The position numbers and the translations under genes were made by a program. A stretch of DNA of 37,865 bases, from IMG/VR virus record IMGVR_UViG_2548876954_000011; one strand, 5' to 3'. The notes below the pieces were generated by a model that saw only the letters and a list, made by a program, of their open reading frames with translations, had not been told where the DNA came from and made no database searches. Positions 2,104-13,320 of the stretch are shown here, piece after piece (position 1 is the first letter of the stretch; every line of letters starts with the position of its first letter). The DNA comes from a virus (taxonomy: Duplodnaviria; Heunggongvirae; Uroviricota; Caudoviricetes).

Positions 2104-3048
2104 TTATAATTCTTCTATCAGAATAAAATTGCATTTTGCAATAACATCAATATCTGAAATTTTACATTCAAATGATAAATCATTGTCTGAAATTTTTAAT
2201 CTTCCTACAGGAATTCTAGTTAGGGTTCGAATGCTCACTTTCCCTTCTATTTCAACAATCCATTTACCATCTGTAATTTCATCGAATGATTGATTACATA
2301 GGTATGTTTTTTTTTCGGTGCTAACAATCAATGGTAATTGGATTGAGTCTGGTAGTAATGCTTTATCAAGCATATAGAAATTTGAATCAAATAGATTCCC
2401 GTCAGTAATTTTTTTGTGAGTAATAGCAATTACATCATTTCTTGCATCGTCAAACTTTGGGCCTTTACCAGTAGTTAGCCACATTAGTGAAGTACCCGTT
2501 TCGAGAGCGCACTTAATTATCCAGTCTGAAGGAAAAACATCACGCATATATCTTGTGGCTAATGTGCTTTTTGAAATACCTAAGTGATCAGCTAAGGCTT
2601 GGCGAGTCTTATAACCGTAAGCCCTAACAATTCGCTCTATTGCTTCCTTGCCACCCCGAGAATAATCAATGGTGTTTTCATTATCGAACTTTGGTTGTTT
2701 ATAGTGAACGTCATGATAAGAACCATCTTCGGAGTGTGTTTCAACATGCTGTTCTGGTGAAGGGGATGGCATTTGTTCGTCATCATCTGAACCAAATGCT
2801 AGCCATTTAATTGATGCTCCAGTTTCCATTGAGCAGATAACAACCCAATCTGCAGGAAATGTATCGCGGGCATATCTGTTAGCCATCGTGCTTTGGGAAA
2901 TACCTAGATGGTTACAGAATGCTTGGCGTGACTTGAAGCCATAAGCCATGAGTATCCGCTCGATTACTTTCTGACCACCGCGATTTTGTATGACAACGGC
3001 TTTCATATCGTCATCAATATGGCGAAATGTGAATTTTTGAGTTGACAT
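2104..3048 (-). CDS. CI-type immunity repressor candidate with two tandem CI-like HTH domains plus a C-terminal domain
   Basis: 314 aa; residues ~24-86 (GGQKVIERILMAYGFKSRQAFCNHLGISQSTMANRYARDTFPADWVVICSMETGASIKWLAFG) and ~132-194 (GGKEAIERIVRAYGYKTRQALADHLGISKSTLATRYMRDVFPSDWIIKCALETGTSLMWLTTG) are about 60% identical to each other and look like the phage CI-repressor N-terminal domain; divergent from the Apl/Cox-like gene, i.e. in the cI position of 186. Confidence 0.65.
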   Translation of the reverse strand: MSTQKFTFRHIDDDMKAVVIQNRGGQKVIERILMAYGFKSRQAFCNHLGISQSTMANRYARDTFPADWVVICSMETGASIKWLAFGSDDDEQMPSPSPEQHVETHSEDGSYHDVHYKQPKFDNENTIDYSRGGKEAIERIVRAYGYKTRQALADHLGISKSTLATRYMRDVFPSDWIIKCALETGTSLMWLTTGKGPKFDDARNDVIAITHKKITDGNLFDSNFYMLDKALLPDSIQLPLIVSTEKKTYLCNQSFDEITDGKWIVEIEGKVSIRTLTRIPVGRLKISDNDLSFECKISDIDVIAKCNFILIEEL

Positions 3049-3136: not shown

Positions 3137-3358
3137 ATGACCCCTAACATTTCAATAACTCTGAATACGCCACATGTCACAATTGAGCGTTATAGCGAAC
3201 TTACTGGTCTTTCAATCGACACAATCAACGATATGCTGGCTGATGGCCGCATCCCTCGACATCGTCTCCGGAAGGACAAGAAAAGAGAAAAGGTAATGAT
3301 CAACCTTGCTGCTCTTACCGTTGATGCACTTACTGATTGCAATGTTGTATTCAACTAG
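3137..3358 (+). CDS. Small Apl/Cox-like excisionase or early regulator
   Basis: 73 aa basic protein, first gene of the rightward early operon, divergent from the repressor; family assigned from position only. Confidence 0.45.
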
Positions 3359-3390: not shown

Positions 3391-3900
3391 ATGTTTGATT
3401 ACCAAGTTTCCAAACATCCACATTTTGATGAAGCCTGTCGTGCATTCGCACTGCGCCACAATCTGGTGCAACTGGCAGAACGTGCAAGCATGAATGTGCA
3501 GATTCTGCGGAACAAGCTGAACCCAGCTCAACCTCATTTATTAACCGCACCAGAAATCTGGCTGCTTACCGATCTGACTGAAGATTCAACGCTGGTAGAT
3601 GGTTTTCTGGCACAGATTCATTGTCTGCCATGTGTACCGATTAATGAGGTGGCAAAAGAGAAACTGCCACATTACGTCATGAGTGCAACCGCAGAGATCG
3701 GGCGTGTTGCTGCAGGTGCGGTATCTGGCGATGTAAAAACCAGTGCCGGTCGTCGTGATGCCATCAGCAGCATTAATTCTGTAACACGACTGATGGCGCT
3801 GGCGGCTGTTTCATTGCAGGCCCGTTTACAGACTAACCCTGCGATGGCGAGTGCAGTTGATACTGTGACTGGCCTCGGTGCTTCATTCGGTTTGCTGTGA
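3391..3900 (+). CDS. 186 CII-like regulatory protein
   Basis: ATG at 3391 gives 169 aa ([49 protein letters not shown]…), which matches my recollection of the phage CII (CP76-type) family and the length of 186 CII; the ORF-track start at 3337 is in frame but probably upstream of the true start. Confidence 0.7.
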
Positions 3901-5489: not shown

Positions 5490-5788
5490 CAAGGGCTGTG
5501 CGTATCCATCAATTAAAAATTGCACCTAAGTATTTCAACGCTGTGGTTGCAGGTCAAAAGACGGCTGAACTTCGTAAAGACGATCGTGGCTATAAAGTTG
5601 GTGATGTTCTTTCTCTTTGCGAATGGAAGCATGGCGTATTTACGGGTAGGGAATGGGCCGCTGTTATCTCTCATGTGCTTCCGGTTAATGACGTCATGGC
5701 AGTTTCAGAACAATGGGTGATGCTATCAATTCGCCCATTAACCCCATTAGAAGCTTTAGGATATGTTATTGCAGGAGGTGCTGTATGA
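5486..5788 (+). CDS. ASCH/DUF3850-like small protein
   Basis: ATG at 5486 preceded by GGAGG; 100 aa ([42 protein letters not shown]…); family recalled from memory. Confidence 0.5.
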
Positions 5789-6642
5789 GTACCATCCTGA
5801 AATGGGCGGGTAATAAAACTGCCATTATGTCCGAACTGAAAAAACATCTTCCTGCTGGCCCGCGACTGGTTGAACCTTTCGCGGGTTCCTGTGCTGTGAT
5901 GATGGAGACGGATTACCCCAGCTATCTTGTTGCGGATATTAATCCTGATTTAATCAACCTCTATAAAAAGGTTGCTGCTGATTGCGAGGCGTTTATATCT
6001 CGTGCCAGAGCTTTATTTGAGGAAGCAAACAGGGAGTTGGCTTATTACAACATAAGGCAGGAGTTTAATTACTCCACTGAAATTACTGATTTCATGAAAG
6101 CGGTATATTTCCTGTATCTCAATCGTCATGGTTACCGTGGGTTATGTCGTTATAACAAGAGCGGGCATTTCAACATTCCATACGGTAATTATAAAAATCC
6201 GTATTTCCCTGAAAAAGAAATTCGCGCATTTGCAGAGAAAGCCCAGCGAGCAACGTTTATCTGCGCCAGCTTTGATGAAACGCTGGCGATGCTGCAGGTG
6301 GGGGATGTGGTGTATTGCGATCCGCCTTATGACGGTACGTTTTCCGGCTATCACACTGACGGCTTCACTGAAGATGACCAGTATCACCTGGCATCTGTTC
6401 TTGAATATCGATCATCAGAAGGTCATCCAGTCATTGTTTCTAACAGTGACACATCCCTGATCCGTTCGCTGTATCGAAATTTCACTCACCACTACATCAA
6501 GGCAAAACGCAGCATCGGCGTGTCGGCTGGCGAGAGTAAATCTGCAACAGAAATCATCGCTGTTTCCGGGCCGCGCTGCTGGGTGGGATTTGATCCTTCG
6601 CGTGGCGTGGATAGTTCTGCCGTGTACGGAGTGCGTGCATGA
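5785..6642 (+). CDS. dam: DNA N6-adenine methyltransferase (Dam family)
   Basis: [23 protein letters not shown]…EPFAGSCAV (AdoMet motif) and [11 protein letters not shown] (DPPY catalytic motif); about 285 aa. Confidence 0.85.
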
Positions 6643-9053
6643 GCCATGCTGATATGAACAACTGCAGCGGCTTTAACGAGGCCGCCGCAGCATTCTCATG
6701 GAACAGCCCGAAAAAGGCTATTAACCCTTATCTGGACCCGGCGGAAGTTGCGCCGGTTTCTGCGCTTTCAAACCTGATCACTCTGTACGCTGCCGATAAC
6801 GAGCAGGAACAACTGCGCCGCGAGGCACTGAGTGATCAGGTCTGGGAGCGTTATTTCTTTAATGAATCCCGTGATCCTGTCCAGCGCGAAATGGAGCAGG
6901 ATAAGCTCATTAGCCGGGCAAAGTTGGCGCATGAGCAGCAGCGTTTTAACCCGGACATGGTCATTCTGGCAGACGTTAACGCCCAGCCTTCCCATATCAG
7001 CAGGCCGCTGATGCAACGTATTGAATACTTCAGCAGCCTTGGCAGGCCAAAGGCTTATTCCCGCTATTTGCGTGAGACGATTAAGCCATGTCTGGAACGG
7101 CTGGAGCATGTACGCGACAGTCAGCTATCCACTTCTTTTCGCTTTATGGCAAGCCATGAAGGGCTGGACGGCCTGCTGATTCTGCCTGAAATGAGTCAGG
7201 ATCAGGTGAAACGCCTGTCCACCCTTGTTGCTGCGCATATGAGCATGTGCCTTGATGCAGCTTGTGGCGATTTGTATGCCACCGATGACGTTAAGCCAGA
7301 AGAAATCCGCAAGACATGGGAAAAGGTGGCAGCAGAAACCCTGCGACTGGATGTCATACCGCCTGCGTTTGAGCAACTCCGCCGGAAAAGAAACCGCCGT
7401 AAACCCGTGCCCTATGAACTCATTCCGGGTTCGCTGGCGCGTATGTTGTGCGCCGACTGGTGGTACCGGAAATTATGGAAGATGCGTTGCGAATGGCGGG
7501 AAGAGCAGTTGCGTGCTGTTTGCCTGGTCAGCAAAAAAGCATCTCCCTATGTCAGCTATGAAGCCGTGATGCATAAACGTGAGCAGCGCCGTAAGTCGCT
7601 GGAGTTTTTCCGTTCTCATGAACTGGTGAACGAAGACGGCGACACGCTGGACATGGAGGATGTGGTAAACGCCAGCAGCAGCAACCCTGCGCATCGCCGC
7701 AATGAGATGATGGCCTGTGTTAAAGGTCTGGAGCTTATCGCGGAAATGCGCGGTGACTGCGCCGTTTTCTACACCATCACCTGTCCGTCACGTTTCCATT
7801 CCACGCTAAATAACGGCAGGCCCAACCCGACCTGGACAAATACGACGGTAAGACAAAGCAGTGATTATCTGGTCGGCATGTTTGCTGCATTTCGTAAGGC
7901 GATGCACAAAGCCGGATTGCGCTGGTATGGCGTGCGGGTGGCTGAGCCGCATCATGACGGTACAGTTCACTGGCACCTGTTGTGTTTTATGCGCAAAAAA
8001 GATCGCCGCACCATTACTGCTTTGTTGCGTAAGTTTGCCATTCGTGAAGACCGCGAGGAGCTGGGTAATAACACAGGACCACGCTTTAAGTCTGAGCTGA
8101 TAAACCCGCGCAAAGGTACGCCAACAAGCTACATCGCGAAATACATCAGTAAGAACATTGACGGGCGTGGTCTGGCTGGCGAGATCAGCAAGGAAACGGG
8201 TAAATCCCTGCGTGATAACGCTGAATACGTTAATGCCTGGGCGTCTCTTCATCGTGTTCAGCAATTCCGCTTCTTTGGCATTCCGGGGCGTCAGGCTTAC
8301 CGTGAACTGCGATTGCTGGCTGGTCAGGCGGCAAGGCAACAGGGGGACAAAAAAGCAGGTGCGGCGGTACTGGATAACCCACGCCTTGATGCCATCCTGG
8401 CTGCTGCTGATGCTGGTTGTTTTGCCACCTACATCATGAAGCAGGGCGGCGTACTGGTTCCCCGCAAATATCACCTCATCAGAACCGCTTATGAAATCAA
8501 CGAAGAGCCGACCGCCTATGGCGATCACGGCATTCGTATTTATGGCATCTGGTCACCCATTGCAGAGGGCAAGATCTGCACTCATGCAGTGAAGTGGAAA
8601 ATGGTTCGTAAGGCCGTTGACGTTCAGGAGGCGGCAGCCGACCAGGGCGCTTGCGCCCCTTGGACTCGTGGCAATAACTGTCCCCTTGCTGAAAATTTGA
8701 ACCAACAGGAGAAAGATAAATCAGCTGATGGGGACACCAGAACGGATATTACCCGCATGGATGACAGGGAGTTGCACGATTACCTGCACAGTATGAACAA
8801 AAAAGAGCGCCGGGAACTGGCTGCAAGGTTACGTCTGGTGAAACCGAAACGGCGTAGAGACTACAAACAGCGAATTACAGACCATCAACGACAGCAGCTC
8901 GTCTATGAACTGAAGTCCAGAGGATTTGATGGCAGCGAGAAAGAGGTCGATTTACTCCTTCGCGGCGGCAGTATTCCATCAGGAGCAGGCTTGCGTATCT
9001 TCTATCGGAACCAGCGTCTGAAGGAAGATGATAAGTGGCGGAACCTGTATTAA
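6639..9053 (+). CDS. A: Replication initiation endonuclease (P2 gpA-like rolling-circle initiator)
   Basis: 804 aa; HUH-type motif [10 protein letters not shown] (around 7963-7992) and active-site tyrosine region YIAKYISK (around 8131-8154); position after dam in the early operon. Confidence 0.9.
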
Positions 9054-9147
9054 TTACGCGGGTTAACAATTCGTGCTCTTAATAATACCAGGAATATCAG
9101 GCCGATGAACGTAAAAAAACGTTTTACATCAGTAAGATTATTATATA

Positions 9148-9163
9148 CTGTAAATATAAACAG
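9148..9163. promoter_or_regulatory. LexA box (SOS operator) overlapping a promoter for the downstream Tum/DinI-like genes
   Basis: CTGTAAATATAAACAG fits the CTGT-N8-ACAG LexA consensus exactly; TTTACA (9123-9128) and TATACT (9144-9149) give possible -35/-10 elements; sits 43 bp upstream of the ATG at 9206. Confidence 0.6.
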
Positions 9164-9205
9164 TGGTTATGTATACAGTATTGCTTTGGTGTCATAGGAG
9201 GAAAG

Positions 9206-9394
9206 ATGCAGGACTATTTTTTGGAGTCTTTGAAGCTCCAGCGCATTGATTTTTTTCTTAAGCTTGTAGCGGCTAGTGAGTGTAGTGATGAAGAGAAGGG
9301 GCTGGCTCTGCAGTGGGTTTCTGAATTAACTGATGAACTCATGGCAAAAATCAGAACCCATGAATACAACCGCTCAATGGATGTCATCAGTTGA
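9206..9394 (+). CDS. Hypothetical small protein, first gene of the SOS-controlled module
   Basis: 62 aa; AGGAGG at 9196-9201 just upstream of the ATG. Confidence 0.5.
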   Translation: MQDYFLESLKLQRIDFFLKLVAASECSDEEKGLALQWVSELTDELMAKIRTHEYNRSMDVIS

Positions 9395-9405
9395 GGTGAC
9401 TTTTT

Positions 9406-9639
9406 ATGCGCATTGAAATAATGATCGATAAAGAGCAGAAGATTAGCCAGTCTACCCTGGACGCCCTTGAATACGAGCTTTACCGCAATCTGCGCCCCCT
9501 ATATCCAAAAACGGTAATTCGCATCCGCAAAGGTAGCTCTAACGGTGTGGAACTGACCGGACTGCAACTGGACGAAGAAAGGAAGCAAGTGATGAAAATT
9601 ATGCAGAAAGTGTGGGAAGACGACAGCTGGCTGCATTAA
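9406..9639 (+). CDS. DinI-family protein (186 Tum-like antirepressor candidate)
   Basis: 77 aa, MRIEIMIDKEQKISQSTLDALEYELYRNLRPLYPKTVIRIRKG…WEDDSWLH, resembling DinI (MRIEVTI…); sits downstream of a LexA box, as tum does in 186. Confidence 0.7.
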   Translation: MRIEIMIDKEQKISQSTLDALEYELYRNLRPLYPKTVIRIRKGSSNGVELTGLQLDEERKQVMKIMQKVWEDDSWLH

Positions 9640-9772
9640 GAAACGTTGCTGGCGTCTGAACTTGCTTCTGGCGTCAGCAAGGTTGAACAACGAGCTGTGC
9701 GAGGCGTTAGCTCTGTGGTGCATGTCTATACCGCATAAGATCGCATGATTGTTTGAGGATCGTTTTTGCTCA

Positions 9773-9798
9773 GGCCCGCCAGAACTGGCGGGCTTTTG
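9773..9798 (+). terminator. Rho-independent terminator (possibly bidirectional)
   Basis: Perfect 9-bp GC-rich stem GCCCGCCAG / CTGGCGGGC with a 2-nt loop, followed by TTTT; an A/T run also lies on the other side. Confidence 0.5.
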
Positions 9799-9842
9799 CG
9801 TAGATCATGCAGGTGCATGAAAACCACTACATAAAGCGGGCA

Positions 9843-9861
9843 GGCGTGGCGGGGATACGAG
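9843..9861. other. Putative cos (cohesive end) site
   Basis: GGCGTGGCGGGGATACGAG resembles my recollection of the 186/P2 19-nt cohesive ends (GGCGTGGCGGGGAAAGCAT / GGCGAGGCGGGGAAAGCAC), 13 of the first 13 nt matching 186; recalled, not verified. Confidence 0.3.
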
Positions 9862-9889
9862 CGCGCGCTGAAAAGGTTTAGCTAAATTT

Positions 9890-9919
9890 TTGTCGATAGG
9901 TAGTTTTAGTTGTTATACA
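9890..9919 (+). promoter_or_regulatory. Putative sigma70 promoter for the ATPase/protease cassette
   Basis: TTGTCG, 17-nt spacer, then TTATAC/TATACA, inside a very AT-rich T-tract region upstream of the ATG at 10053. Confidence 0.3.
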
Positions 9920-10052
9920 AAAGTGTCACTGGTTTTGTTTTGAGCATTTGTGGTGCTAAAAATATTTTTTTTGGTTCAAAATTACCTTAAAAAGGTTTTT
10001 TTGGTGTATGATTGTTTGAAAAGTGGTTCAGTTTTGCCATAAGGGTGGTTAG

Positions 10053-11135
10053 ATGATAAACGTTACAAACGAAATGCTCATTGATGTTGTCAGTGATGCT
10101 CTTACCGGGAAGAGGGAAAGTCTCCTCATGCGGTTGCGGATTATGGCAAAAAAACTAAAAAAAGAATCTCCTGAATTAGCGGGTAAATTAGAAGATTTAC
10201 TTATTAATACAGGTGGCGCAATTGCAGTCGAAAGGGCTAATCCAGTTGTTCCTAAAATAACACCTGTTGATGCGGATACAAGACAAAAGCTGCTAGTTGA
10301 AACATATCCTGTGGTCATTGATGTTGAACCTGTTTGGCCAACAAAAACTGATGTTCAACTGAATCGATTTGTGGCTGAGTGGGAAATGAAAGAACGCCTT
10401 TATAAAGAAGGGTTGCATCCGTCCAAATCTCTTCTTATGGGAGGACCACCCGGTGTGGGGAAGACTTTGGCTGCAAAGTGGCTCGCTTTTAAACTCGATA
10501 TGCCATTGTTAACATTAGATCTCGCAAGTGTAATGAGTAGCTACTTGGGGAAAACGGGTAATAATATTAAGGCAGTCCTCAATTATGCTTCGTCATTCCC
10601 TTGTGTACTGCTTCTTGACGAATTTGATGCGATTGCTAAAAAAAGGGATGATGCAACAGATGTTGGAGAACTAAAAAGATTAGTTACAGTATTATTGCAA
10701 GCAATTGATGAATGGCCAAATACGTCTGTTCTTATAGCAGCAACTAACCATGCGGAGCTGCTTGATCCTGCTGCATGGAGAAGATTCGATCGAGTTATTG
10801 ATTTTGAATATCCAACACAAGACCTAATGAGAAGATATCTCTGTTCTAAAAATATTGGAGATAGCTTATCGTACTATATTGCTACAAAACTCGAAAAAGT
10901 TTCATATGCAGTTCTTGAGAGAGCTATAAATCAAGCTAAAAGAAATGCCATTATAGAAGATATTCCTTTAAGTTCAGCTTTAATTGATGAGTTGTTAGAT
11001 GGCGTGTCACTTGATGATGTTATAAAAAACATGTCAAACAACAATGTATCACAAAGAAAAATCGCTTTAGATTTGGGGATTTCAAGGTCACAAGTACGTA
11101 AGGTTTTGACGGTTGAGGATGAAGACAATGAATGA
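10053..11135 (+). CDS. AAA+ ATPase (IetA-like), first gene of the cargo cassette
   Basis: 360 aa; Walker A GGPPGVGKT (around 10440-10466), Walker B LLLDEFD (around 10610-10630); C-terminal HTH-like segment SQRKIALDLGISRSQVRKVL; AT-rich; stop overlaps the protease start (ATGAATGA). Confidence 0.85.
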   Translation: MINVTNEMLIDVVSDALTGKRESLLMRLRIMAKKLKKESPELAGKLEDLLINTGGAIAVERANPVVPKITPVDADTRQKLLVETYPVVIDVEPVWPTKTDVQLNRFVAEWEMKERLYKEGLHPSKSLLMGGPPGVGKTLAAKWLAFKLDMPLLTLDLASVMSSYLGKTGNNIKAVLNYASSFPCVLLLDEFDAIAKKRDDATDVGELKRLVTVLLQAIDEWPNTSVLIAATNHAELLDPAAWRRFDRVIDFEYPTQDLMRRYLCSKNIGDSLSYYIATKLEKVSYAVLERAINQAKRNAIIEDIPLSSALIDELLDGVSLDDVIKNMSNNNVSQRKIALDLGISRSQVRKVLTVEDEDNE

Positions 11136-13320
11136 TAAAAATATGCTTCTTGGCTATGGTGAAACACTAACTAACCCTGTTAAACTTAACAGAGGTGGAG
11201 GTGAAAAGAATAAACCTTACTCTTATTCAGAAAATAAACCAGTGATATCTGCTCAACTGGAAGAGTTGATTGAGGAAATTAATACCCTTCCATTGTTAGC
11301 AATGCCTGAAGGTAAGGCTGTAGCAAAATTTGTTTTGCATCCGGCATTCTTAGCAAAAAGTTATTTTCCAGTAAGTCTTTTTGAGCGATTTTCCCTAGAA
11401 AGCATAGGCAGTAAGGCTGTAAAAGTAAAACCTAGAAAAGATATTAAAAAAAGAGGGCGAAAAGAGGAATACACTACAGCGTGTATTTATGTTTCTGGCA
11501 AAAAAGAAAGTTTTCAATCATTCTTAGACTCTGTAAATCAAGATACCCTAACGAAAGGGCAGCAAAATGATTTTGTCACCTTAGAAAATATTTCAATACT
11601 GGAAGTTTCAGATAAAGTAAAAACGATTAATAGCAATGAAGTTATGAGTATTGAGGTCGCCTTACATACTCCTGATACAAGTTCCTCTATTGTCGATAGT
11701 TTTGAAGTTTTTGCTTCGCAAAATGGTGCTGTTATAGATAAGGCAAGAAGTATAAAGGTTAAGGGGCTAACCTTTATGCCTATTAAGGCTAGTAAAGATG
11801 TAGCTTTAAAAGTTGCAGAGTTTTCATTTCTCAGGACTTTGAGAGAACTTCCTGAATTAAGGCTAAGTGAGCCTGTTATATCACGTTCTGTGATTCAAAC
11901 ATCTAACCTTAGTTTACCATCTGAAGGAGCGGTAAACCCACATATAAAGGTTGCCATATTCGATGGTGGATTGGGGATCGATGATTTCAATCCTTGGGTA
12001 ACAGAGTACACTTTCAACGGTAATGCTAGTACTAATGCAAAACTTCTTTCTCATGGACAAGATGTCACCTCTACTGTGTTATTTGGTGTTCTTGGCTCTG
12101 AAACGGAAAAATTAAGTGTTCCTTATTGTAATATTGACCATTATCGTGTACTGGATTCCAATGTTAATAACTCAGATGTCGATCTTTTTGACGTTCTGAT
12201 CCGTATTAAAAGTGTATTAGAACAAAAAAAATATGATTATATCAATCTGAGCTTAGGACCTAGATTACCTGTTGATGACGATGACGTGCATGTGTGGACC
12301 TCAACTCTTGAGGAGATACTTGCATCAGGAGAAACACTTTGTACTGTCGCGGTTGGAAATGATGGTCAGCTGCCTGCCAAGTTAAATCGAATTCAACCAC
12401 CTGCTGATTTAGTTAATGGTCTGTCAGTAGGTGCAGCAACCTCTTTATCTGATAGTTGGGAAAGATGTTCTTACAGTTGTATTGGTCCTGGACGAAGCCC
12501 TGGCTTTGTGAAGCCTGATGGAGTTGCATTTGGAGGACATTCTGATGAGCCATTCCAGGTATACAGCCCTATGGTTAATGGTCTTGCCCGCACTGCGGGG
12601 ACTAGCTTTTCAGCTCCATTAGTCCTGAGGCAAGCAATCGCGTTAAGTGCTTCTCTAAATTACAACATTACACCACTTACGGCTAAAGCTCTGCTTATAC
12701 ATCATGCGGAGAGCAATAATATCAATCGTGCTGAAGTTGGTTGGGGACGATTTCCTCATGATCTTAGTGAAGTAATATTTTGTGATGATGATGAAGTTAA
12801 AGTTATATATCAAGGTACTTTAAAACCATCACAACACATGCGAGCACCTATTCCGTTTCCAGATGTACCTATGCGTGGATGTGTAAATTTAAGAGCGACA
12901 TTCTGCTTTTCCAGTCCTGTAGATGCGGAACATCCTTTGAATTATACAAGAAGCGGTCTAGAAGTAACCATGAGAAAAGGTGTTTCAGATAGTTCCGGGT
13001 TAACGTTTCCTCTTTTTAATCTAAAAAATGTTTATGCAGATGAAAATGAGCAACGTGTTGATGCACATAAATGGGAGACTACGTTAAGAAGTGAACACAA
13101 ATTTAAACCGAATGAGCTGACAAACCCATGCTTTGATATTATCTACTATGGTAGAGACTGTGGTATGCCTATTGATGTTGACGAGTTAGAAGAACTACCA
13201 TATGTTCTTGTCGTGACTTTATCTGCTGAAGAAATGCCGGATTTATATAACCTAATTAGGCAGAAATATCAAACCTTACAGCCTATACAAGTTCAACAGC
13301 AAATTATGTTACGTACTTAA
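11128..13320 (+). CDS. Subtilisin-like serine protease (peptidase S8 family, IetS-like), probably cytoplasmic
   Basis: 730 aa from the ATG at 11128 (GAGGA about 9 nt upstream; in-frame alternatives at 11113 and 11119); S8 catalytic motifs in the right order: D in VAIFDGGLG (codon 11962-11964), H in LSHGQDV (12052-12054), oxyanion N in AVGNDGQ, S in AGTSFSAP (12604-12606); no N-terminal signal peptide evident. Confidence 0.85.
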   Translation: MNDKNMLLGYGETLTNPVKLNRGGGEKNKPYSYSENKPVISAQLEELIEEINTLPLLAMPEGKAVAKFVLHPAFLAKSYFPVSLFERFSLESIGSKAVKVKPRKDIKKRGRKEEYTTACIYVSGKKESFQSFLDSVNQDTLTKGQQNDFVTLENISILEVSDKVKTINSNEVMSIEVALHTPDTSSSIVDSFEVFASQNGAVIDKARSIKVKGLTFMPIKASKDVALKVAEFSFLRTLRELPELRLSEPVISRSVIQTSNLSLPSEGAVNPHIKVAIFDGGLGIDDFNPWVTEYTFNGNASTNAKLLSHGQDVTSTVLFGVLGSETEKLSVPYCNIDHYRVLDSNVNNSDVDLFDVLIRIKSVLEQKKYDYINLSLGPRLPVDDDDVHVWTSTLEEILASGETLCTVAVGNDGQLPAKLNRIQPPADLVNGLSVGAATSLSDSWERCSYSCIGPGRSPGFVKPDGVAFGGHSDEPFQVYSPMVNGLARTAGTSFSAPLVLRQAIALSASLNYNITPLTAKALLIHHAESNNINRAEVGWGRFPHDLSEVIFCDDDEVKVIYQGTLKPSQHMRAPIPFPDVPMRGCVNLRATFCFSSPVDAEHPLNYTRSGLEVTMRKGVSDSSGLTFPLFNLKNVYADENEQRVDAHKWETTLRSEHKFKPNELTNPCFDIIYYGRDCGMPIDVDELEELPYVLVVTLSAEEMPDLYNLIRQKYQTLQPIQVQQQIMLRT

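Follow-up and report, generated by a model that had tools for sequence, protein, structure and literature searches.

A split tum operon of the 186/Fels-2 type as the probable SOS induction module of an Escherichia coli prophage

How could a prophage sense DNA damage in its host when its immunity repressor has no recognizable self-cleavage domain? This question is raised by a stretch of viral DNA of 37,865 nucleotides (IMG/VR record IMGVR_UViG_2548876954_000011; the whole stretch at its full length is hereafter called the window), which represents a complete P2/186-like (Peduoviridae) prophage of Escherichia coli. In the gap right after replication gene A, a LexA box precedes two small genes, orf62 and orf77, encoding proteins of 62 and 77 amino acids. 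We consider it probable, at roughly 80%, that these genes and their box constitute the SOS operon of a prophage of the 186/Fels-2 type, split as in Fels-2 and PSP3, with orf62 as a TumA-like putative antirepressor and orf77 as a TumB/DinI-like protein. Such a module has been described before in phages 186, PSP3, and Fels-2, and its novelty is low. Modest and testable additions are an operator of the colicin type with two boxes, a possible int promoter under LexA control, and the absence of co-variation between TumA and the CI repressor.

The operator consists of two boxes on the plus strand. Box 1, TACTGTAAATATAAACAGTG, occupies 9146–9165 with its core CTGTAAATATAAACAG at 9148–9163, and box 2, CAGTGGTTATGTATACAGTA, occupies 9161–9180 with its core GTGGTTATGTATACAG at 9163–9178; the two cores have one base pair in common. 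The whole 37.9-kb window was scanned with an approximate matrix resembling the heterology index, in which lower scores are better and which was derived from 24 LexA operators of E. coli. Box 1 scored 4.0 and box 2 scored 7.35, compared with 8.8 for the best site among 30 mononucleotide shuffles of the window and 0.5–9.6 for the training sites. Just three sites in the window, at 9146–9165, 9161–9180, and 1062–1081, beat the best shuffle. The original prediction, made from the letters of the sequence, had placed a LexA box at 9148–9163 over a plausible promoter and had proposed such a matrix scoring; the box withstood the scoring and overlaps a promoter resembling p95 of phage 186, whereas the "weaker second half-site" suspected at 9166–9180 turned out to be a complete second box. 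By chance, 0.45 occurrences of the pattern CTGT-N8-ACAG would be expected in the window, and two are present. An exact match at 11177–11192, CTGTTAAACTTAACAG, lies at the ietA/ietS junction in the region of the ietS start, scored 15.6, and was set aside as probably due to chance.

Conservation across relatives appears to be a stronger argument for the LexA box than these chance statistics. We compared 17 loci, including 186, PSP3, Fels-2, ESSI-2, Yersinia phage 06.16-2, and contigs with family members 32–46% identical to orf62. A LexA-like site lies 16–42 bp upstream of the orf62-family gene in all 17, suggesting that the box is a conserved and positioned operator. Within up to 18 kb of each locus, no further LexA-like site was found except upstream of int in three of them. 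The position of the module after gene A is also the same in all relatives examined, and box 1 is identical in Fels-2 and phage 500465-1. As a separate observation, 186 (L001, 6975–6999) and PSP3 (L004, 9030–9047) have in common the motif CATATCATG(T/A)ACATACAG at a distance of about 60 bp upstream of the tum promoter's LexA site, and this motif resembles a LexA half-site.

By their layout, boxes 1 and 2 seem to form a dual overlapping operator of the colicin type, for which occupancy by two LexA dimers is expected. The 37-bp sequence TACTGTAAATATAAACAGTGGTTATGTATACAGTATT matched hundreds of small Col-type plasmids, just upstream of colicin Y and cloacin genes, and the dual box of the window aligns almost base for base with the operators of these genes. 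Colicin operators with two overlapping SOS boxes are bound by two LexA dimers, resulting in very tight repression and expression in a subpopulation of cells (PMC2994835). Among tum promoters, we found the dual operator in the Fels-2 lineage, comprising the window, Fels-2, and phage 500465-1, and a single LexA box in 186, PSP3, ESSI-2, and the remaining relatives.

A promoter equivalent to p95 can be read over the operator. Its −35 element, TTTACA at 9123–9128 (plus strand), was read from the sequence, and its −10 element, TACTGT at 9146–9151 (plus strand), is the left arm of box 1. The annotated p95 of 186 has TTCACA, an 18-nt spacer, and TACTGT, and its LexA site begins with the six bases of this −10 element; by this analogy, we infer the tum promoter of the window to be TTTACA and TACTGT separated by 17 nt. 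Downstream, the transcript probably ends at a GC-rich hairpin at 9772–9799 (plus strand), the likely terminator of the tum operon, in which a 10-bp GC stem is followed by TTTT (UUUU in the RNA). It occupies the same position as t95a of 186, and the segment 9637–9815 folds much better than its shuffles (z = −3.75). A consensus terminator scan did not call this hairpin, which has just four T. Another long hairpin, at 9646–9681 with a direct repeat of CTGGCGTC, stands right after the orf77 stop codon and upstream of the terminator hairpin. A terminator-like inter-cistronic hairpin at 9383–9400, considered as an attenuator or an element of translational coupling, was rejected as it folds no better than shuffles (z = −0.2).

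Which proteins would this promoter produce? The first gene, orf62 (9206–9394, plus strand), is preceded by a Shine–Dalgarno sequence, AGGAGG, at 9196–9201, and the second, orf77 (9406–9639, plus strand), by GAGGTG at 9393–9398, with 11 nt between the two genes. The orf77 product matches Pfam DinI (PF06183) with an E-value of 1.9e-22 and 79.8 bits, compared with a gathering cut-off of 24.2, and the DinI structure 1GHH in the PDB with 6e-6. It is 99% identical to the DinI-like protein of Fels-2, 78% to TumB of PSP3, 30% to E. coli DinI, and 41–42% to residues 71–145 of 186 Tum. Its segment VWEDDSW, which carries the conserved C-terminal acidic W-E-D/W motif, aligns with TWESADDW of E. coli DinI.

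The orf62 product is more elusive. It is 98.4% identical to STM2728 of Fels-2, belongs to PHROG 698 of "unknown function", and gave nothing with Pfam. Its family is small: a search of 1.8 billion cluster representatives yielded 66 clusters, almost all of 55–75 amino acids. A family profile built from 30 diverse members aligned with residues 3–44 of 186 Tum in hhalign with a probability of 95% and an E-value of 3e-8. An AlphaFold 2 model predicts a two-helix hairpin with helices at 2–23 and 28–61 (predicted local distance difference test score of 88). A Foldseek search of this model against BFVD found no match at E ≤ 0.001, as would be expected for a two-helix hairpin. From these comparisons, orf62 appears to be the counterpart of the N-terminal half of Tum and orf77 that of its DinI-like C-terminal half. 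Tum itself has been described as looking like a fusion of an antirepressor with a DinI sequence, and tum is split in two by a stop codon in Fels-2 and PSP3 (PMC3121763). In the PSP3 record, the annotation of tumA reads "UV induction of prophage", and tumB is described as DinI-like. Over 1000 complete E. coli genomes label the orf62 gene "hypothetical", and PHROGs list it under "unknown function", which is mainly a point of annotation. Homologues of orf62 are sometimes misnamed "levan regulatory protein", and the published role of TumA is absent from these annotations.

The presumed target is the immunity repressor CI of 314 amino acids, encoded at 2104–3048 on the minus strand. It is of the 186 type with two tandem Phage_CI_repr helix-turn-helix (HTH) domains preceding Phage_CI_C according to Pfam, and no match to Peptidase_S24 was found in it at E ≤ 0.01. 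This CI is 32% identical to CI of 186, 36% to that of Fels-2 (29% in the C-terminal domain), and 30% to that of PSP3; a CI with two HTH domains is also present in PSP3 and Klebsiella phage 4LV2017. Phage records contained no CI more than 58% identical to it, suggesting a rare immunity type, which is found in 7 of 5426 E. coli genomes. Induction through a lambda-type self-cleaving (S24) repressor was considered and rejected, as no S24 domain was matched, and a CI of this kind fits antirepression rather than cleavage. In phage 186, Tum is expressed from the LexA-regulated p95 and sequesters CI reversibly (PMC7708051), binding CI and blocking its binding to operators (PMC3121763, PMC7708051). The original prediction had recognized the 77-residue protein as DinI-like and akin to the C-terminal part of 186 Tum, and had noted a repressor without an obvious S24 domain; both observations were borne out. 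Its conclusion, a LexA-controlled antirepressor in place of RecA-mediated cleavage of the repressor, stands with the 186-type CI and the split tum genes of Fels-2 and PSP3, but the route by which it was reached, deducing antirepression from the likeness to DinI, does not.

A third LexA box lies upstream of int. A strong promoter there, TTGACA and AAAAAT with a 17-nt spacer at 1057–1085 on the minus strand (10 of 12 matches in the promoter scan), lies some 25 bp upstream of the start codon of int, between int and an open reading frame (ORF) of 325 amino acids. Its spacer is filled by CACTGGTTATATATACAGCA at 1081–1062 (minus strand), which has the best score in the window (3.69). The int promoter is possibly repressed by LexA and induced by SOS, as judged from this arrangement. 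The box upstream of int is also present in 4LV2017, 813R9, L020, and L021, in all of which a moron separates cI from int, and the inserted genes differ among the box-bearing phages. The box is absent where int abuts cI, namely in 186, Fels-2, and L013–L018. We found no description of a LexA-controlled int promoter in P2-like phages in the searchable literature, by which novelty is not proven. If true, it would provide a second SOS input, into excision, and the supply of integrase would itself be an SOS function so far undescribed in that literature.

Does the tum module match the repressor it is found with? The module is present in 1125 of 5426 complete E. coli genomes, about a fifth, while the arrangement of cI, moron, and int is present in the seven genomes mentioned above. 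No co-variation is seen between TumA and CI: TumA proteins that are identical or 98% identical stand beside at least six CI types, in Fels-2, 4LV2017, Cartapus, 813R9, and several Klebsiella phages, with CIs that have one or two HTH domains and are 27–39% identical to the CI of the window in the C-terminal domain and 58–80% in the HTH domain. This divergence and the disparity in abundance would be compatible with a module that is SOS-regulated but mismatched with its CI, where a recombined tum cassette of the Fels-2 type sits beside a foreign immunity region and TumA is inactive on the double-HTH CI. The prophage would then not be SOS-inducible, or would just be cross-induced by, or cross-induce, other prophages. 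We regard this as unlikely, although it survives better than any other alternative, because phages that were isolated or induced carry this one TumA together with six or more types of CI, which argues that TumA tolerates the diversity of CI. The LexA box and both ORFs are, moreover, intact and 100% identical in several other genomes, and the prophage also has a conserved, putatively LexA-controlled int promoter, which points to the use of SOS induction.

These pairings suggest either mismatched mosaics or a generic, cross-acting TumA, comparable to the antirepressors of Gifsy, that recognizes something conserved within the CI family. The conserved HTH scaffold is presumably where a generic TumA would act. 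If one TumA truly inactivates many heteroimmune CIs, SOS would induce co-resident P2/186-like prophages collectively by cross-induction. A broader picture, which we put forward tentatively and with somewhat more doubt than belief, joins a nearly invariant, generic TumA acting on heteroimmune 186-type CIs, an int promoter repressed by LexA wherever a moron splits cI from int, and a dual operator in the Fels-2 lineage giving all-or-none induction in a subpopulation. Compared with the textbook picture of 186, SOS wiring in this family of prophages may have a broader reach and less specificity.

Which of the two proteins would act as the antirepressor? The original prediction put its emphasis on orf77; on a reading of this kind, the DinI-like protein would be the antirepressor, or needed for antirepression, and orf62 a bystander. 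In 186, both halves indeed form one polypeptide and the full-length Tum is the characterized antirepressor (186 annotation; PMC3121763), and the 11 nt between orf62 and orf77 make translational coupling probable. The constant partner of the LexA box among the loci compared, however, appears to be the orf62 homologue and not dinI. An orf62 homologue is followed by a DinI-like gene in phages of the Fels-2 type, PSP3, and loci of the L015–L017 type, whereas it occurs with the LexA box and without any dinI in ESSI-2, Yersinia phage 06.16-2, L011, L013/14, L018/19, and L021; in most of these contig loci, the small gene is directly followed by ogr and the portal gene. Antirepressor activity of PSP3 was located in the upstream gene, according to a passage of PMC3121763 that relays a personal communication via Bunny et al. 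2002. Non-polar deletions of dinI in Gifsy prophages left induction unchanged (PMC3121763), and the 186 record annotates the tum products containing just the DinI part as "modulating" SOS induction, not as inhibiting CI. The retention of the box with orf62 homologues lacking dinI and the silent Gifsy deletions lead us to regard orf62 as the antirepressor and orf77 as a modulator directed at RecA; the opposite assignment is quite improbable. We see orf77 as accessory; it is likely to bind to filaments of RecA and to adjust how strong or how long the SOS signal is. The original prediction had also held that its model would fall if the DinI-like protein proved to be without effect on the repressor; such an outcome would leave the model intact, the likeness to DinI being the mark of the accessory half of Tum.

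Finally, the idea that the LexA box and the DinI-like gene constitute an SOS moron that benefits the host by modulating RecA, with no role in the lysis–lysogeny decision, might draw on the frequency of LexA-controlled DinI homologues in prophages, on the deletion without an induction phenotype in Gifsy (PMC3121763), and on the PGAP labels of the pair, just "hypothetical protein" and "DinI-like family protein", but it can hardly be upheld given the apparent homology of orf62 to Tum, the fixed position after gene A, the strict association with prophages carrying 186-type CI and CII, the loss of Fels-2 from Salmonella LT2 in every case where a lexA null mutation was survived (PMC12626290), which links lexA null lethality to Fels-2, and a repressor that needs another SOS input because it has no self-cleavage domain.

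An SOS operon with orf62 as the antirepressor would work as follows. In a healthy lysogen, two LexA dimers on the overlapping boxes at 9146–9180 would cover the −10 element and the start region, keeping the promoter silent. Upon DNA damage, activated RecA would trigger the self-cleavage of LexA, and the tum promoter would fire, producing a short bicistronic orf62–orf77 mRNA ending near the hairpin at 9772–9799. The orf62 protein would then bind the 186-type CI and prevent it from binding its operators, by reversible sequestration without cleavage. The lytic promoter pR would open for apl, cII, and the replication genes, leading to lytic growth, while orf77 might tune RecA filament activity and thereby the strength or duration of the SOS signal. 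The gene orf62 would most likely be the switch that turns DNA damage, including quinolone damage, into prophage induction. The sequence anatomy, the homologies, the gene context, and the conservation of the operator were observed here; LexA control and antirepression are proposed by analogy with the literature on close relatives, and the action of orf62 on this particular CI and the role of orf77 are our extrapolation.

Several points weigh against this reading. Pairwise BLASTP gave no alignment of orf62 with either 186 Tum or PSP3 TumA, and the family profile matched PSP3 TumA in the same register but weakly (hhalign E-value of 0.003 and probability of 10%). The apparent homology between orf62 and Tum is based on a single profile comparison, that with 186 Tum. 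The statement on the antirepressor activity of PSP3 TumA is a second-hand personal communication. A generic sigma-70 scan of 8900–10100 called no promoter, as the −10 element has 3 of 6 matches, and the LexA matrix is approximate. The compatibility of TumA with CI is assumed, since the CI of the window is just 36% identical to that of Fels-2 and has an extra HTH domain, yet the TumA proteins are 98% identical.

The surrounding genes include a lysogeny module of the 186 type, with CI, Apl, and CII. On the minus strand, int (1–1032) is followed by the 325-residue ORF (1114–2091; PHROG 2628, unknown function) and then by cI. This ORF has a coiled-coil-like N-terminal half and hydrophobic segments, and showed no match to PADLOC. 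The interval between cI and int is a moron slot, in which relatives hold unrelated genes. On the plus strand, an apl/cox-like gene for an excisionase and repressor (3137–3358; PHROG 575, "Cox-like excisionase and repressor", 9.6e-32) comes first in the CI-repressed lytic operon and precedes a 186-type cII (3391–3900; Pfam Phage_CP76, 8.6e-41). Small early genes lie between cII and the gene for a Dam methylase (5713–6642), which is followed by replication gene A (6639–9053; Phage_GPA, 6.8e-127). Beyond the tum operon, the IetAS anti-phage defence system, consisting of an AAA ATPase and an S8 subtilase, is carried as cargo at 10053–13320 on the plus strand, with PADLOC matches of 6.7e-84 for IetA and 1.8e-48 for IetS. 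The slot holding this cargo, bounded by the tum operon and the portal gene, is variable, and relatives carry, for example, a TIR protein or GAPS4. Induction of the prophage would mobilize its IetAS defence genes.

Among known systems, Fels-2 is the closest. Its split tum locus, STM2728 and STM2726.1, agrees with the window in its promoter and box 1, in the two ORFs (98% and 99% identical at the amino-acid level), in its place behind gene A, and in going with a 186-type switch. In contrast, Fels-2 CI has one HTH domain and the low identity to the window CI given above, box 2 of Fels-2 is GTGGTTATATGTACAG, which differs from that of the window at two positions, and int abuts cI without a LexA box of its own, whereas int of the window has one. 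The downstream cargo is IetAS in the window and STM2726 and others in Fels-2. The tumA/tumB pair of PSP3 resembles the window in that a gene of about 60 codons and a DinI-like gene of 77 codons follow gene A, preceded by a LexA box, and PSP3 CI likewise has two HTH domains, but PSP3 TumA is very divergent from orf62 and PSP3 has a single LexA box. The p95–tum unit of 186 likewise has the LexA site over the −10 element TACTGT, the position after gene A, and a CI without S24. There, however, both halves are fused into one protein of 146 amino acids with internal starts, orf97 is next in the operon, and the LexA box is single. More distantly, the LexA-controlled dinI-gfoA/gftA operons of Gifsy-1/2/3 also unite a dinI homologue with a small antirepressor behind a LexA box, with repressors that remain uncleaved (PMC3121763); they differ from the window in that dinI comes first, the antirepressor and repressor families are unrelated, and the phages are lambdoid. 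The dual operator has its nearest likeness in colicin and cloacin plasmids, whose 37-bp operator, TACTGTA.ATA.AA.CAGTGGTTATGT.TACAGTATT, is near-identical to that of the window, with two boxes and one shared base pair. In the plasmids, this operator drives a toxin/lysis operon, whereas in the window it would drive a prophage antirepressor.

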